This document shows positions 1 through 64,000 of a stretch of 64,000 nucleotides of DNA, piece by piece. The DNA comes from Escherichia phage EO1. The notes beneath the pieces are model-generated. The model did not search any database. It was not told the origin of the DNA and saw only the letters and a list, made by a program, of their open reading frames with translations. Location of the stretch: sequence record OQ223305.1; one strand, written 5' to 3'. Position 1 is the stretch's first letter. The number at the start of each line of letters is the position of its first letter. Made by a program: the position numbers and the translations under genes.

Positions 1-705
1 TCAGCTTTTGAAAATGGTGACCGTATACCAGAAGGCATTACAGTTTATCGTGCTCAAAGTATGACTGCTCCTATATATGAAGCGTTAGTTAAAAATAAAG
101 TGTTCTATTTCAGAAATTTTGTATCTACTTCTTTAACTCCTATCATTTTTGGGCGTTTTGGAATTACACATGCTGGTATTGGTCTTTTAGAACCAGAAGC
201 TCGTAACGAATTGACAGTTGATAAAAATGAAGAAGGAATAACTATTAATCCAAACGAAATAAGAGCGTATAAAGAAAATCCTGAATACGTTAAAGTTCAA
301 ATAGGATGGGCAATTGATGGAGCTCATAAAGTTAATGTTGTATATCCAGGAAGTCTCGGAATAGCAACAGAAGCTGAAGTTATTCTACCACGAGGATTGA
401 TGGTCAAAGTTAATAAAATAACTGATGCTTCTAATAATGACGGAACAACATCTAATAATACAAAACTCATTCAAGCTGAAGTTATGACTACGGAAGAACT
501 CACCGAATCAGTAATTTATGACGGTGACCGTCTAATGGAAACTGGTGAAGTAGTTGCAATGACAGGTGATATTGAAATAGAAGACAGAGTTGACTTTGCA
601 TCATTTGTTTCATCAAATGTTAAACAGAAAGCAGAATCATCTCTCGGAATTATTGCGTCTTGCATAGATATTACAAACATGCCTTACAAGTTCGTTCAAG
701 GATAA
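1..705 (+). CDS. Alt-like ADP-ribosyltransferase paralog, 5' end outside window
   Basis: Frame is open from nt 1 (..GITVYRAQS-M..). Shares ART-type motifs with the downstream alt product (YRAQS, FVSTSL, EAEVILPRG) and a similar C-terminal tail (DGDRLMETGEV). Confidence 0.6.
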   Translation, partial: SAFENGDRIPEGITVYRAQSMTAPIYEALVKNKVFYFRNFVSTSLTPIIFGRFGITHAGIGLLEPEARNELTVDKNEEGITINPNEIRAYKENPEYVKVQIGWAIDGAHKVNVVYPGSLGIATEAEVILPRGLMVKVNKITDASNNDGTTSNNTKLIQAEVMTTEELTESVIYDGDRLMETGEVVAMTGDIEIEDRVDFASFVSSNVKQKAESSLGIIASCIDITNMPYKFVQG

Positions 706-708
706 ATC

Positions 709-2766
709 ATGGAACTTATTACAGAATTATTTGACGGCGCTTCGGCGCCGGTTGTTAACTTAAATCCTAAGCATAAAATACCTCAAATTTTTGCTATTCA
801 AGCCGGTGAAGAAAGCGTGCTTCCTGGATTTAGATTTTGTACATACACCTCTGGCGGTGATACAAATAAAAACGTTAAGCCAGGCGATAAAATGATGCAT
901 ATCGTAATGATAGGTGTCAATGAGAAACTATCATTAGTTAAACTTAAAAACTTGGGTGGAAATCCAATTGGTGTTATTAATGCGGTTTTTGATACTGCTC
1001 TTCAAACAATGAAACAGTATAAAATTGACGCATGCCTGTTCCGCGTACTAAAGAGTAAAACAAATGGCGCAGCTCGACAAATTCAAGTTATTGCTGACCG
1101 TTTAGTACGTACTAAAGGAGCAGGTCGATATGTTCTTTTAAAGGAAATCTGGGATTACGATAAAAAGTATGCATATATTATGGTTTACCGTAAAAATGCC
1201 AATTTAGAAGACATTCCAGGTGTACCTCCTATTTCAACTGAGTTATTCACAAAAGTTGAATCAAAGGTTGGTGATGTTTATGTAGACGTTAAAACAGGTA
1301 ATGCTGTTCCTAAAGCTGTTGCTGTTGCCGCTTCTATTGCTTTAGAAAATGATAAGCGCACGGATCAAGCTGTTATTCAGAAAACTAAAATTAGTCGTCG
1401 ATTAGCAGCACAAGCTCAATACTCTACTGTCGATGCTTCACTTCAGGGCGATAGTTTCGCTGCTAAGAAATATCAAGAGTTTGAATCTAAAGTTCCGGTA
1501 TATAAAGCAGAAGGACCAATGAACTCTGGCGTTATTCAGATTGGTTCAAACTTCGGCAAAGGAGCTATCGGTGGTATGAGGAGTGCTTCTCGTTTTAAAT
1601 CTAGTGATTATGAACTAGAAAGCTTCCGAAATCATATTGCATTGGCCCATGCGCGTTTACGTGATCCATCTATTAAATTACAGAGCGATATAACATATCA
1701 AGGTTCTCAGGAATATTTAAAGAATAAAGAATTTTTTGATTATAAAACTGATAAAATTTTAAGCGATCTTGCTGACATTAATATTTCTAATAGCTTTGAT
1801 GTTATTAAGAAAATTGTCAATGATTTAGTTAAAGGTTCTAAAGCCACGCCAGATGAAAAGGTAGCTATTATTCAATTTGTCATGAATGGCATTTATAAAT
1901 TGATTAATGAGTCTGCTTCTCAAGCGTATGAATATGCAAGTACTGAAGTACCCCCAAAAGGATTAACTCGGGCTGAGTCTGATGTAATTGAAGATTATTG
2001 CGCAGATTCATATGTTGAAATGAACTCGTTCCTTTTAGGTAAACCGGATTCTACTCGTGAAGAATATATGGAACGAGCTATTAAACACATCGAGACGATG
2101 GATTCTGCTTTTGCCAAAGGATCAGTTCTTCCTCCAGGAACTACGCTTTACCGTGGCCAAGAAGTTACCTTTAAAACTTTACGTCATAATATTGAAAATA
2201 AAATGTTCTATTTTAAGAACTTCGTATCCACATCGCTTAAACCAAATATCTTCGGTGAGTATGGTAAAAACTATATGACTCTAGATGATTCCAGTGCAGT
2301 ATTTTCTGGTGAAGGAGAAGGTTCAATTGACGCAGAAGATTTGATGCATATGGGCAGTCATTCTGCTTATGCGAATGAAGATGCTGAAACTAGCGTGGGT
2401 ATGGTAATTAAAGGAGCTGAGCGAATCAAAGTTATCGTTCCGGGTCATTTATCAGGATTTCCGTCAGAAGCTGAAGTTATTTTACCACGTGGAATTTTGC
2501 TGAAGATTAATAAAGTGAGCACGTACATGATGAAAGAAACTGCTTATAACAAGTATTTAATCGAAGGTACAATCGTTCCTCCTTCTGAACAATTAGAAGA
2601 ATCGGTATATGATGGCGATCATCTGATGGAAACTGGTGAAGTTCGTCCAATGGCTGGATTTAATCAATTCCTTGTAGAAGAATCAAAAGAAGAGGAAAAC
2701 GAAGTTTCTCAAATCTTGGCTTCTTTGGTTAACATCAACGGAATGTCTAAAAAGTTCAAAATGTAG
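709..2766 (+). CDS. alt: Alt ADP-ribosyltransferase (virion-packaged, modifies host RNA polymerase)
   Basis: 685-aa ORF, ATG at 709 with AAGGA RBS. Motifs LYRGQ / FVSTSL / SEAEVILPRG. Length and position next to gene 54 match T4 alt (about 682 aa, recalled). Confidence 0.85.
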   Translation: MELITELFDGASAPVVNLNPKHKIPQIFAIQAGEESVLPGFRFCTYTSGGDTNKNVKPGDKMMHIVMIGVNEKLSLVKLKNLGGNPIGVINAVFDTALQTMKQYKIDACLFRVLKSKTNGAARQIQVIADRLVRTKGAGRYVLLKEIWDYDKKYAYIMVYRKNANLEDIPGVPPISTELFTKVESKVGDVYVDVKTGNAVPKAVAVAASIALENDKRTDQAVIQKTKISRRLAAQAQYSTVDASLQGDSFAAKKYQEFESKVPVYKAEGPMNSGVIQIGSNFGKGAIGGMRSASRFKSSDYELESFRNHIALAHARLRDPSIKLQSDITYQGSQEYLKNKEFFDYKTDKILSDLADINISNSFDVIKKIVNDLVKGSKATPDEKVAIIQFVMNGIYKLINESASQAYEYASTEVPPKGLTRAESDVIEDYCADSYVEMNSFLLGKPDSTREEYMERAIKHIETMDSAFAKGSVLPPGTTLYRGQEVTFKTLRHNIENKMFYFKNFVSTSLKPNIFGEYGKNYMTLDDSSAVFSGEGEGSIDAEDLMHMGSHSAYANEDAETSVGMVIKGAERIKVIVPGHLSGFPSEAEVILPRGILLKINKVSTYMMKETAYNKYLIEGTIVPPSEQLEESVYDGDHLMETGEVRPMAGFNQFLVEESKEEENEVSQILASLVNINGMSKKFKM

Positions 2767-60367: not shown

Positions 60368-60730
60368 ATGAAAGCATATCAAATTCTTGAAGGCACACAT
60401 AAAGGTACTATTTATTTTGAAGATGGTATTCAAGCACGAATTATTGTCTCCAAAACCTTTAAAGAGGACTCTTTTGTAGACCCAGAAATTTTCTACGGTT
60501 TGCATGCCCGTGAAATTGAAATTGAGCAACAGCCTACAGTTAAAATTGAAGGTGGTCAACACCTGAACGTTAACGTTCTGCGTCGTGAAACTCTGGAAGA
60601 TGCAGTTAAGCATCCGGAAAAATATCCGCAGCTGACCATCCGTGTATCCGGTTATGCAGTTCGCTTTAACTCTCTGACTCCGGAACAGCAGCGCGACGTT
60701 ATCGCTCGTACCTTTACCGAGAGTCTGTAA
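60368..60730 (+). CDS. autonomous glycyl radical cofactor (GrcA/YfiD-like)
   Basis: C-terminal about 60 aa ([60 protein letters not shown]) match recalled E. coli GrcA, including the RVSGY glycyl-radical motif. That segment uses CTG/CGT/CCG-rich codons unlike the rest of the phage. Confidence 0.8.
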
Positions 60731-61490: not shown

Positions 61491-61520
61491 GTTTACTTTT
61501 CCTCTTGACTGTGGTATAAT
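61491..61520 (+). promoter_or_regulatory. T4-type early promoter upstream of regB
   Basis: GTTTAC, then 18 nt, then TGGTATAAT (extended -10), then AGAGGAG RBS. Confidence 0.65.
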
Positions 61521-61547
61521 TTTTCTATCAGTTAAGAGGAGAATAAC

Positions 61548-62009
61548 ATGACTATCAATACAGAAGTTTTTATCCGTCGAAATAAGCTTCGTCGTCACTT
61601 TGAGTCGGAGTTTCGTCAAATTAACAATGAGATTCGTGAGGCATCAAAAGCAGCAGGGGTCTCATCGTTTCATCTAAAATATTCTCAGCATCTTCTTGAT
61701 CGTGCAATTCAACGGGAGATTGATGAGACATATGTTTTTGAATTATTCCACAAAATAAAAGACCATGTTTTAGAAGTTAATGAATTCCTGAGTATGCCTC
61801 CGCGTCCTGACATTGACGAGGATTTTATTGATGGGGTTGAATATCGTCCTGGGCGTTTGGAAATTACAGATGGAAATCTTTGGCTTGGATTTACAGTTTG
61901 TAAGCCTAATGAGAAGTTCAAAAACCCGTCACTTCAATGCAGGATGGCAATTATCAACAGTCGTCGTTTACCAGGAAAGGCTTCTAAAGCAGTAATTAAA
62001 ACTCAATGA
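61548..62009 (+). CDS. regB: RegB site-specific endoribonuclease
   Basis: 153 aa. MTINTEVFIRRNKLRRHFESEF.. and length match recalled T4 RegB. Confidence 0.75.
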   Translation: MTINTEVFIRRNKLRRHFESEFRQINNEIREASKAAGVSSFHLKYSQHLLDRAIQREIDETYVFELFHKIKDHVLEVNEFLSMPPRPDIDEDFIDGVEYRPGRLEITDGNLWLGFTVCKPNEKFKNPSLQCRMAIINSRRLPGKASKAVIKTQ

Positions 62010-62016
62010 GGTAAGC

Positions 62017-62562
62017 ATGAGAAAAGCACTACTCGCTGGTCTATTGGCCATTTCAATGATGGCACATAGCTCCGAGCATACTTTCAGTAATGTCCAACTC
62101 GATAACATGCGTTACGCGTATCAATTCGGGGAACAATTTTCTAAGGATGGAAAATATAAAACACACAAAAATATCCACAAGAGCGGATTAGGTCATATAA
62201 TGGCTGCTATTTTATGGCAAGAAAGCTCTGGCGGAGTTAATTTAAAATCTAAACCAAAGCATCACGCCTACGGAATGTTCCAAAATTATTTGCCTACTAT
62301 GCGAGCAAGAGTTAAGGAACTTGGTTATAATATGACCGATGCTGAAATAAAAAGAATGTTGAATAAACGGTCCAATTCAGCTTCCTGGGCGTACATTGAA
62401 CTTTCTTATTGGTTAAATATACATAAGGGCGATATAAGAAAAGCAATATCCTCTTATAATTCGGGATGGAATGTTAAAGCAGGTTCTAAATATGCTTCTG
62501 AAGTCCTAGAAAAGGCTAATTACCTTAAAAATAATAAACTTTTGGAAATAGTAAATGACTAA
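62017..62562 (+). CDS. secreted protein with lytic-transglycosylase-like motif
   Basis: 181 aa. N-terminal signal-peptide-like MRKALLAGLLAISMMAHS. The segment AILWQESSGG..YGMFQ resembles the SLT catalytic ES..GLMQ signature. Confidence 0.45.
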   Translation: MRKALLAGLLAISMMAHSSEHTFSNVQLDNMRYAYQFGEQFSKDGKYKTHKNIHKSGLGHIMAAILWQESSGGVNLKSKPKHHAYGMFQNYLPTMRARVKELGYNMTDAEIKRMLNKRSNSASWAYIELSYWLNIHKGDIRKAISSYNSGWNVKAGSKYASEVLEKANYLKNNKLLEIVND

Positions 62563-62896
62563 AATTTTGGTTTTATGTATAGGATTAATTTCATTTTCTG
62601 CGTTAGCAGATACATCATATACTGAAATTAGAGAGTATGTAAACCGTACTGCAGCGGATTATTGCGGGAAAAATAAAGCATGCCAAGCTGAATTTGCACA
62701 GAAATTAATATATGCATATAAAGACGGAGAAAGAGATAAATCAAGCAGATACAAAAATGATACATTGTTAAAACGATATGCTAAAAAGTGGAATACCTTA
62801 GAATGTTCAGTTGCGGAGGAGAAAGATAAAGCCGCTTGTCATTCAATGGTTGACCGTTTAGTAGATTCTTATAATCGAGGATTGAGTACTAGATGA
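62555..62896 (+). CDS. small secreted Cys-containing protein
   Basis: 113 aa. Signal-peptide-like MTKILVLCIGLISFSALA and four Cys. Confidence 0.4.
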   Translation: MTKILVLCIGLISFSALADTSYTEIREYVNRTAADYCGKNKACQAEFAQKLIYAYKDGERDKSSRYKNDTLLKRYAKKWNTLECSVAEEKDKAACHSMVDRLVDSYNRGLSTR

Positions 62897-63372
62897 TTGT
62901 AAAATATATCAAGGGCGATATTGTCGCCCTATTTCTTCAAGGTAATATTATTGCGCACGGGTGCAATTGTTTTCATACTATGGGTTCAGGTGTAGCGGGT
63001 CAATTAGCAAGAGCCTATCCCAAAATTTTAGAAATAGATAAAACTACTACCGAGTACGGTTCTCGTGATAAATTAGGCGATATGTCTATTGTTTTTAAAC
63101 ATAGTCCTACGGGATTTGGTATATGCTATAACCTGTATACACAATACGAACCGGGTCCTAATCTTGATTATGGTGCTTTAGTAAACTGCATGATAGAATT
63201 AAATCTACAGGCAGAAACCCTTTTGTTTAAACCAGTAATTTACATTCCACGCATAGGTTGCGGTATTGCTGGCGGCGATTGGGATAAGGTTTCTAAATTA
63301 ATCGACATGTTTACTCCTGATATTGATTTAATAGTGGTGGATTATGAAAGTACATTACCCGCATCCGTTTGA
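62893..63372 (+). CDS. macrodomain protein (TARG1/OARD1/DarG-like)
   Basis: 159 aa. Motifs KGDIVALF..IAHGCNCFHTMGSGVAGQL and PRIGCGIAGGDW..LIVVDY align with recalled OARD1/TARG1 (KGDLFA..LAHCISEDCRMGAGIA, PRIGCGLDRLQW..ITVYTL). Confidence 0.65.
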   Translation: MIVKYIKGDIVALFLQGNIIAHGCNCFHTMGSGVAGQLARAYPKILEIDKTTTEYGSRDKLGDMSIVFKHSPTGFGICYNLYTQYEPGPNLDYGALVNCMIELNLQAETLLFKPVIYIPRIGCGIAGGDWDKVSKLIDMFTPDIDLIVVDYESTLPASV

Positions 63373-63556
63373 TCCTAAAAACAAAGTGGAAATTATTCGT
63401 CAATGGGAACGCATTTGCCGTACTAAATGCCCAATTAATAGTCCACATGATGTAGATAAAGACTATATTGGAACATTCGTTGAATATACCTTTATTGATA
63501 GGAAAGGTCGTAAACAACATGTAGAAGAATATTGTTTAAAGGTTACATGGTTATGA
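63344..63556 (+). CDS. hypothetical protein
   Basis: 70-aa ORF with GGTGG RBS, overlapping the end of the macrodomain gene. Confidence 0.35.
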   Translation: MKVHYPHPFDPKNKVEIIRQWERICRTKCPINSPHDVDKDYIGTFVEYTFIDRKGRKQHVEEYCLKVTWL

Positions 63557-63759
63557 GCCAAACTAGTATTCTTAAAAATGCCCACTGCGAAAAGTGTGAA
63601 TGGCCAGTTGTTTTTGCTTTATGTAATGATGAAATGGCTTGTGATTTCGATTATTGGTGCTATTGTTCCAATAAAGGATGCATCAATCATAAAGGTGAAG
63701 GATTTTATTCAGGATTTTATCCTTATCCTGATTTCGTTAAAGAAGGTAAACCGAAATGA
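63547..63759 (+). CDS. small Cys-rich protein (possible zinc binding)
   Basis: Track start at 63532 is a TTG. ATG at 63547 with AAAGG RBS. Contains CEKCEW..CNDEMACDFDYWCYCSNKGC. Confidence 0.35.
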   Translation: MVMSQTSILKNAHCEKCEWPVVFALCNDEMACDFDYWCYCSNKGCINHKGEGFYSGFYPYPDFVKEGKPK

Positions 63760-63929
63760 ATAGTTTTGAGTTACAATATGAAGTGTTACGTGAGCTTGAT
63801 AATTTAATTGAACTCGCTGTCAATAAAGGTTTTGCCATTGGAATCGGTCAAAAAGATACTGGTCATTTAACTATGGAAATATTTAAGCAAAAGCGAATTA
63901 TTTTAAAACTCCTGGAAATTAATATATGA
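63756..63929 (+). CDS. hypothetical small protein
   Basis: 57-aa ORF below the track threshold, ATGA overlap with the previous gene. Confidence 0.3.
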   Translation: MNSFELQYEVLRELDNLIELAVNKGFAIGIGQKDTGHLTMEIFKQKRIILKLLEINI

Positions 63930-64000
63930 GTCTGAGTAAAGAACAAAAAGATAAATTGTTTGAGCTTATCCATGAACTTCTAGATGAGCATACAGAAGCA
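63926..64000 (+). CDS. hypothetical protein, 3' end outside window
   Basis: ATG at 63926 overlaps the previous stop. Frame is open to the window end (MSLSKEQKDKLFELIHELLDEHTEA..). Confidence 0.25.
   Translation, partial: MSLSKEQKDKLFELIHELLDEHTEA

Follow-up and report, generated by a model that had tools for sequence, protein, structure and literature searches.

The tk.4 locus

The window analysed here is a stretch of 64,000 nt from Escherichia phage EO1 (record OQ223305.1). Towards its end lies a series of genes on one strand, tightly packed or overlapping, from regB to an equivalent of tk.3, with a macrodomain gene in between (Table 1). The region 61500-64000 shared 99.2% identity with Escherichia phage PE37 and 95–99% with over 450 further Tequatrovirus (T4-like) genomes. 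The gene order regB, vs.1, vs, macrodomain gene, tk.3 is that of T4 (regB, vs.1, vs, tk.4, tk.3), making the macrodomain ORF the positional orthologue of T4 tk.4. The two proteins shared 58% identity (E 1e-70) and an identical N-terminus (MIVKYIKGDIVALF). The gene is real and correctly read: it codes for Tk.4, the macrodomain of T4-like phages to which the name AdfM was recently given, and as tk.4/adfM it has already been described. An earlier note on this DNA, made from the sequence alone, had recognized here a 159-aa ORF with two glycine-rich loops. The ORF runs exactly from 62893 to 63372 on the plus strand, and both motifs are present.

Table 1 Features of the 64,000 nt window, in window coordinates.
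Feature	Position	Strand	Details
Alt-like transferase gene, truncated at the window edge	1-705		Pfam ADPrib_exo_Tox, E 2e-19
Alt-like transferase gene	709-2766		Pfam ADPrib_exo_Tox, E 6e-20
Promoter-like site upstream of regB	61492..61520	+	TTTACT, 17 nt, TATAAT, with TG; consensus scan
regB	61548-62009	+	
vs.1	62017-62562	+	
vs	62555-62896	+	
Macrodomain protein CDS, tk.4/adfM orthologue	62893..63372	+	159 aa plus stop, ATG-to-TGA ORF
ATGA overlap of vs stop codon and macrodomain gene start codon	62893..62896	+	from the sequence
Divergence island	62920..63400		per-gene and 60-nt sliding nucleotide identities
Loop 1, catalytic and distal-ribose loop (predicted)	62956..62997	+	aa 22-35, HGCNCFHTMGSGVA; H22, G23, N25, G33 invariant
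N80-L-Y-T83-Q84 motif, end of central strand	63130..63144	+	hhalign and MAFFT alignments
Loop 2, diphosphate-binding loop (predicted)	63247..63282	+	aa 119-130, PRIGCGIAGGDW
tk.3 equivalent, DUF7202 protein	63344-63556	+	

The ATGA overlap with vs suggests translational coupling of the macrodomain gene. The promoter-like site upstream of regB may be the start of a transcript carrying regB, vs.1, vs, the macrodomain gene and tk.3, which is plausible from the sequence. The promoter call is weak, because in the consensus scan the number of promoter-like sites in the region did not exceed the shuffled expectation. A terminator-like hairpin was found inside the 5′ end of the macrodomain gene, with a folding z-score of only -1.97, in a stretch that is identical in all alleles.

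Many GenBank and RefSeq records carry a version of the protein of 130–131 aa, for example the 131-aa CDS in the RefSeq record of PE37 and the 130-aa protein of SHFML-26/11, which begins at Met30. A start at Met30 loses strand 1, plus H22 and N25. The long start giving 159 aa is supported by three observations: T4, SCS4 and ELT1 have identical DNA at the start and the same long start annotated, residues 1–29 can be matched to the first strand and first loop in TARG1, DarG and SCO6735, and residues 2–25 were confidently modelled by AlphaFold2. The ATGA overlap with the vs stop codon supports it as well. Anyone cloning the gene or predicting its structure from the shorter annotation, in which strand 1 and the catalytic His and Asn are missing, would be misled.

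Fold and class of the encoded protein

The protein scored 32 bits with the Pfam Macro domain (PF01661; gathering threshold 22 bits, E 1.3e-7, profile positions 2–117 of 118) and matched PHROG 335 with an E value of 1e-71, far more than chance would give. By tblastn, matches were found in 2,859 of the 50,697 phage records searched. The AlphaFold2 model, calculated from an alignment of 55 homologues, had a mean pLDDT of 94.1 and showed a confident three-layer alpha/beta/alpha architecture, matching solved macrodomains. Its best Foldseek match was human TARG1 (E 7e-10, TM 0.81).

Profile-profile comparisons of the phage family gave a probability of 98.6% both for human TARG1 (hhalign, E 1e-15, gapless across the T83-K84 region) and for SCO6735 (E 8e-16), and of 97.5% for Thermus aquaticus DarG (E 5e-12). 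The TARG1 and Mycobacterium tuberculosis DarG sequences used were matched against PDB chains, those of T. aquaticus DarG, BT1257 and SCO6735 were recovered from HMMER alignments, and that of PhiKZ gp104 was taken from the methods section of a paper. In the fold and class comparison, the values were 18.4 for BT1257, 17.9 for M. tuberculosis DarG, 17.4 for Poa1p, 16.9 for TARG1 and 16.8 for T. africanus DarTG, with coronavirus and other macrodomains coming next (13.7). The closest relatives in structure and sequence were TARG1, DarG, SCO6735/BT1257, Poa1p and ALC1, apart from the MacroD, viral and PARG classes. Since its nearest relatives in this comparison are members of the TARG1/DarG-like (ALC1-like) class, placement of the phage protein in this class is supported, in line with the assignment to the TARG1/OARD1 subfamily made in the earlier note.

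Within the class, two more specific identities were rejected. DarG was the sole PADLOC match (E 5e-7, model positions 3–144 of 329), and the best NCBIfam match was the DarG equivalog NF048014, with 27.7 bits against a cut-off of 250 and to the macrodomain part of the model only; both matches fall far short of membership. The protein is not a DarG: besides the low score, it has Q84 in place of Lys80 and is a single domain. A C-terminal DarT-binding domain is absent from the 159 residues, and the adjoining genes are vs and tk.3, with no darT among them. Nor is it TARG1 (OARD1) proper, having Gln84 for the catalytic Lys84 and Ala126 for Asp125 of the dyad. A DarT partner was also sought beside a bacterial homologue, Pelagimonas P0094, and none was found there; this gene stands by itself, its chromosomal neighbours being unrelated.

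The active site carries glutamine in place of lysine

The first glycine-rich segment, IAHGCNCFHTMGSGVAGQL, spans aa 20–38, and the second, PRIGCGIAGGDW, forms loop 2. In the alignment of 55 homologues, H22, G23, N25, G33, Q84, G122 and G124 were invariant. N-x-Y-[TS]-Q was present in 120 of the 120 best homologues, and H-G-[CA]-N-C in all of these except records annotated from a downstream start.

Gln84 lies at the position of the catalytic lysine, which is K84 in TARG1, K80 in DarG and K78 in PhiKZ AdfM. By hhalign, T83-K84 of TARG1 aligned with T83-Q84 and D125 of TARG1 with A126; a joint MAFFT alignment agreed. The surrounding motif N80-L-Y-T83-Q84 aligned with N76-F-P-T79-K80 of DarG, Y80-L-I-T83-K84 of TARG1 and N81-M-I-G-Q85 of SCO6735. 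This mapping rests on alignments and not on distances in the model. A single-sequence HMMER alignment with BT1257 had put N-x-Y-T-Q five residues out of register, with a Lys at the catalytic position; MAFFT and hhalign alignments with SCO6735 and BT1257 overturned this reading, giving Gln on Gln plus a loop insertion. The hhalign alignment with PhiKZ gp104 was off by one at this place, and the multiple alignment put K78 in the Lys/Gln column. The suspicion in the earlier note that the TARG1 lysine is not conserved was well founded: in the alignments, Q84 stands at K84, and A126 at D125.

A glutamine at this position has a precedent. SCO6735 of Streptomyces coelicolor has Gln85 there; its Q85A variant is inactive and N27S nearly so. 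The enzyme is quicker than DarG or TARG1 at hydrolysing thymidine-linked ADP-ribose, and it can rescue cells from DarT (PMC9411070). TARG1-like enzymes, SCO6735 among them, also take uracil-ADP-ribose in RNA as a substrate. In the mechanism proposed for SCO6735, which is based on molecular dynamics and mutagenesis and not on a substrate-complex structure, water is positioned by the Val25 backbone and the distal ribose is held by Gln85. K34, and K89 on a longer mobile loop, position the DNA (PMC9411070).

Most of these residues have counterparts in the phage protein. Q84 is conserved in the Q85 column, N25 aligns with N27 of SCO6735 (and N22 of DarG), H22 with H24 (and H23 of Poa1p), and G122 and G124 with G126 and G128; G23 occupies the V25 column, its position being aligned. 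The DNA-positioning lysines are not conserved. K34 is replaced by S32 (Ser or Ala across the phage family), and K89 is missing because the mobile loop that follows the Gln has five or six residues fewer in the phage family; this loop contains no lysine and has no counterpart of the segment bearing K89. Of the residues probed in the Poa1p structures, H23 is conserved (H22), S30 is conservatively changed (T29) and F152 is not conserved (A126).

Because SCO6735, with Gln85 at this position, needs the Gln and cleaves thymidine-linked ADP-ribose, the phage protein is probably better read as a “Gln-type” hydrolase than as a binding-only module. From the missing lysine the earlier note had envisaged either a binding-only or a mechanistically distinct variant; the SCO6735 precedent (PMC9411070) favours the second, and the first appears unlikely.

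Comparison with known macrodomains

T4 Tk.4 occupies the same slot in the cluster regB, vs.1, vs, tk.4, tk.3, tk, belongs to the same length class (155 aa, against 159 aa in the window) and starts with the same 14 residues. None of the family-invariant residues, among them H22, N25, Q84, G122, G124 and W130, differs between the two. Their overall identity is nevertheless only 58% in amino acids and 63% in nucleotides, between flanks with 95–99.6% identity. They differ in loop 2, which reads GAGIGKGNW in T4 and GCGIAGGDW in the window, the latter being the consensus of the family and of SCO6735, and in a four-residue C-terminal extension of the window protein.

SCO6735 (PDB 5E3B) and BT1257 from Bacteroides (2AFC/2FG1) are likewise stand-alone, single-domain proteins with Gln at the position of the catalytic lysine. 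They have the H-x-C-N motif and the PRIGCG[LI]AGGxW loop in common with the phage protein, whose loop 2 (PRIGCGIAGGDW) is nearly identical to PRIGCGLAGGTW in SCO6735 and PRIGCGLAGGKW in BT1257. However, overall identity to the phage protein is only 26–28%, and both are bacterial chromosomal genes, not phage genes.

DarG (T. aquaticus 5M31/5M3E, M. tuberculosis 5M3I) has in common with the phage protein the conserved Asn and the N-x-x-T before the catalytic position. DarG and PhiKZ gp104 also follow a shared biological logic, the removal of DarT2 marks from DNA, but both keep the catalytic Lys where the phage protein has Gln. DarG further possesses a domain at its C-terminus that binds DarT, and darT lies next to its gene; the phage protein has neither. 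PhiKZ gp104 belongs to another lineage, and only the name AdfM links it to T4 Tk.4. Human TARG1 (4J5S) resembles the phage protein in the PRIGCG start of loop 2, with about 20% identity and both residues of the catalytic dyad replaced. Yeast Poa1p (6LFQ–6LFU), the source of the “phosphatase” label, carries an H-[GS]-C-N-C motif; by sequence, only its N-terminal half and loop 2 align.

Role in infection

A match of tk.4 to the SMART A1pp domain (“A1pp phosphatase”) was reported for T4-like phages in 2006 (PMC1524935), and is noted in T4, T2 and T6 records. Recently, when T4 was put through a transposon screen on a host with DarTG2, tk.4 was the single significant match, the gene being dispensable without DarTG2; a clean tk.4 knockout was DarTG2-sensitive, and the gene was named adfM, for anti-DarT factor Macrodomain (November 2025 preprint, bioRxiv 10.1101/2025.11.20.689424). 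To the authors, enzymatic removal of ADP-ribose from DNA “seems likely”, and the DarTG2 phenotype was measured for the T4 allele only (10.1101/2025.11.20.689424). The name AdfM was also given, in a 2026 Cell Reports paper, to PhiKZ gp104, a DarG2-like macrodomain with N23 and K78 that strips DarT2 marks from DNA in vitro (PMC13309987). Our literature search found no published biochemistry on T4 Tk.4, and in the CmdTAC paper macrodomains appear in the reference list only. The proposal of the earlier note that the gene could reverse a host ADP-ribosylation defence is supported by the T4 orthologue, which T4 needs for growth on a DarTG2 host (10.1101/2025.11.20.689424).

We consider it most likely, with a probability of about 0.7, that the gene product is a single-domain orphan macrodomain, ALC1-like and of the Gln type, that removes ADP-ribose added by host DarT2 from thymidines in phage ssDNA. 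It would be expressed together with its pre-replicative neighbours regB, vs.1, vs and tk, and the protein would act as an orphan “antitoxin” against host DarTG2, whose DarT2 toxin would ADP-ribosylate thymidines in single-stranded phage DNA. The ADP-ribose would be bound in the cleft between loop 1 (HGCNC...GSG) and loop 2 (PRIGCGIAGGDW), and hydrolysis of the ribose-thymine bond would let replication continue. Catalysis is predicted to differ from that of TARG1 and DarG, which use a lysine: the invariant Gln84, held by Asn25, would position the distal ribose, and water would do the chemistry, as proposed for SCO6735. From the phenotype of T4 and the conserved residues we infer that the window allele, 58% identical to the tested T4 protein, has the same activity, and that this activity is enzymatic.

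Alternatively, the protein could be an ADP-ribose-1″-phosphate phosphatase similar to Poa1p, clearing small ADP-ribose derivatives from RNA repair or host immune signalling and not acting on DNA. PHROG 335 and RefSeq label it “phosphatase”, the H-x-C-N-C motif is common to Poa1p, in which the residue aligned with H22 (H23) was chosen for mutagenesis (PDB 6LFS), and the authors of a comparative-genomics survey made the case that ADP-ribose derivatives of low molecular weight are what most phage Macro domains act on (PMC9503650). The label, however, comes from the 2006 SMART A1pp match rather than from an assay (PMC1524935), and the H-x-C-N motif is equally common to SCO6735, a DNA de-ADP-ribosylase. 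Where Poa1p has F152 the phage protein has A126, and the middle of Poa1p fails to align. The sole genetic phenotype of the T4 orthologue is moreover specific to DarTG2, a DNA-modifying system, and we regard a phosphatase role as improbable. Phosphatase and DNA de-ADP-ribosylation activities are not mutually exclusive.

Protection could also come about without catalysis, through direct blocking of DarT2 or sequestration of the ADP-ribosylated substrate. The phage protein lacks the lysine that TARG1 and DarG use in catalysis, and the Q85A variant of SCO6735, although catalytically dead, inhibits DarT in vitro, more so than DarG K80A or TARG1 K84A (PMC9411070). On the other hand, the catalytic residues Q85, N27 and G128 of SCO6735 have invariant counterparts across the phage family, and this invariance argues for a maintained active site. 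A protein of 159 aa has no DarG-like C-terminal toxin-binding domain, and binding to modified DNA would presumably not restore replication. We give this explanation little credence.

Alt, ModA and ModB are arginine-specific ADP-ribosyltransferases, and the substrates of the TARG1-like class are esters of acidic residues and thymine/uracil N-glycosidic links; cleavage of arginine-linked ADP-ribose is not known for this class. The linkage thus does not fit the suggestion, also made in the earlier note, that the protein reverses or tunes the ADP-ribosylation of host proteins by the phage's own Alt, ModA or ModB, which we consider very improbable. The two Alt-like genes that the earlier note had counted are indeed present in the same window (Table 1), and SCO6735 and TARG1 do take ADP-ribose off proteins as well (PMC9411070), but the Alt genes lie 60 kb away with no linkage and their products are packaged virion proteins, the family extends over many genera among the 2,859 phage records, a bacterial homologue stands alone, and T4 tk.4 is dispensable without DarTG2 (10.1101/2025.11.20.689424).

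Two alleles of tk.4 in T4-like phages

The macrodomain gene coincides with an island of divergence. Nucleotide identity to T4, SCS4 and ELT1 was 62–68% inside the gene and 91–99.6% in regB, vs.1, vs and tk.3. Gene by gene, the identity to T4 was 97% for regB, 99.6% for vs.1, 96% for vs, 63% for the macrodomain gene and 91% for tk.3, the drop beginning about 30 nt into the macrodomain gene and ending at its 3′ end. Synonymous sites between the two alleles were saturated at the 63% nucleotide identity. The T4-type allele is present in T2, T4 and T6 alike, and the window allele was found at an identity of at least 90% in about 312 phage records; PE37 and teqskov carry the window allele. SCS4 is an intragenic recombinant, with the first ~50 residues of the window type and the remainder of the T4 type.

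Two such forms of an anti-defence gene hint at diversifying pressure, or at exchange that has occurred repeatedly. The two alleles could also be arms-race variants that differ in specificity, the window allele countering another DarT2 lineage than the T4 allele does, or another base-ADP-ribosylating toxin, such as a modifier of uracil in RNA. We regard this as a rather unlikely, speculative extension. If it were true, the Gln-type chemistry would give the phage a hydrolase mechanistically separate from the host's Lys-type DarG.

Implications

The gene itself adds little that is new: it had been recognized as a macrodomain gene by 2006, and in 2025 DarTG2 resistance was linked to its T4 copy. 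What the comparison adds is the existence of two Tequatrovirus alleles whose products are only 58% identical, within otherwise near-identical DNA. It also groups the T4-type AdfM with the glutamine-type SCO6735 and not with the DarG-like lysine enzymes, which predicts that Q84 and N25 mutants would be dead. Judged from their sequences, the two phage proteins named AdfM, T4 Tk.4 and PhiKZ gp104, would use different active sites.

Divergence of tk.4 and its surroundings

The macrodomain gene of phage EO1, the counterpart of T4 tk.4, shared only 62–68% nucleotide identity with T4, ELT1 and SCS4, in an island with sharp edges. The flanking regB, vs.1, vs and tk.3 were 91–99.6% identical to the same phages. 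Tequatrovirus tk.4 genes fell into two main alleles, of which the SCS4 gene (L006, the SCS4 record, 1501-1968) is an intragenic recombinant.

The stretch 3' of tk.3 (window 63557-64000) could not be aligned with T4 (about 25–31% identity), and matched PE37, SCS4 and ELT1 at 96–99%. Its two small ORFs appear to be counterparts of the RB32ORF111c/110c-type genes, which lie between tk.3 and tk.2 in T6 and T2 and are absent from T4.

Features in the EO1 window and in compared records (L001, RefSeq PE37; L004, Pelagimonas phthalicica chromosome)
Feature	Position	Details
Alt-like ADP-ribosyltransferase gene	window 1-705	PF03496, E 2e-19; cut by window edge
Alt-like ADP-ribosyltransferase gene	window 709-2766	PF03496, E 6e-20
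vs.6 equivalent	window 60368-60730	120-aa ORF; glycyl-radical motif RVSGYAVRF at end
Terminator-like hairpin	window 62912-62930	20 nt into tk.4; G+C-rich AGGGCGATATTGTCGCCCT, then T-rich tail
Divergence island	window 62920-63400	tk.4; nucleotide identity vs T4, ELT1, SCS4
Small ORF downstream of tk.3	about window 63553-63759	
Small ORF downstream of tk.3	about window 63756-63929	
Shortened tk.4 annotation, PE37	L001 4481-4873	omits region of window 62893-62979
Bacterial macrodomain relative	L004 6001-6459	HGCNC / NxYTQ family

The hairpin inside tk.4 was unchanged in T4, SCS4 and ELT1, with a folding z-score of only -1.97.

Other genes in the window

Two Alt-type ADP-ribosyltransferases had been proposed for this window, and both genes, arranged in tandem, indeed matched PF03496. 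The vs.6 counterpart is labelled autonomous glycyl radical cofactor GrcA in the PE37 and T4 annotations.

Start codon, homologues and active site of the macrodomain

RefSeq PE37 and the SHFML-26/11 records start the tk.4 product at Met30 (130–131 aa). A protein read from there lacks both catalytic residues, His22 and Asn25, along with strand 1. The correct start is that of the 159-aa product, overlapping the vs stop codon.

The Pelagimonas phthalicica family member (40% identity) stands alone on the chromosome, with neither DarT nor any other toxin encoded beside it.

In the literature, AdfM denotes two non-orthologous phage macrodomains with unlike active sites: PhiKZ gp104 is DarG-type, with Lys78 in the active site, whereas T4 Tk.4 and the EO1 protein are SCO6735-type, with Gln84 (codon 63142-63144 in the window).
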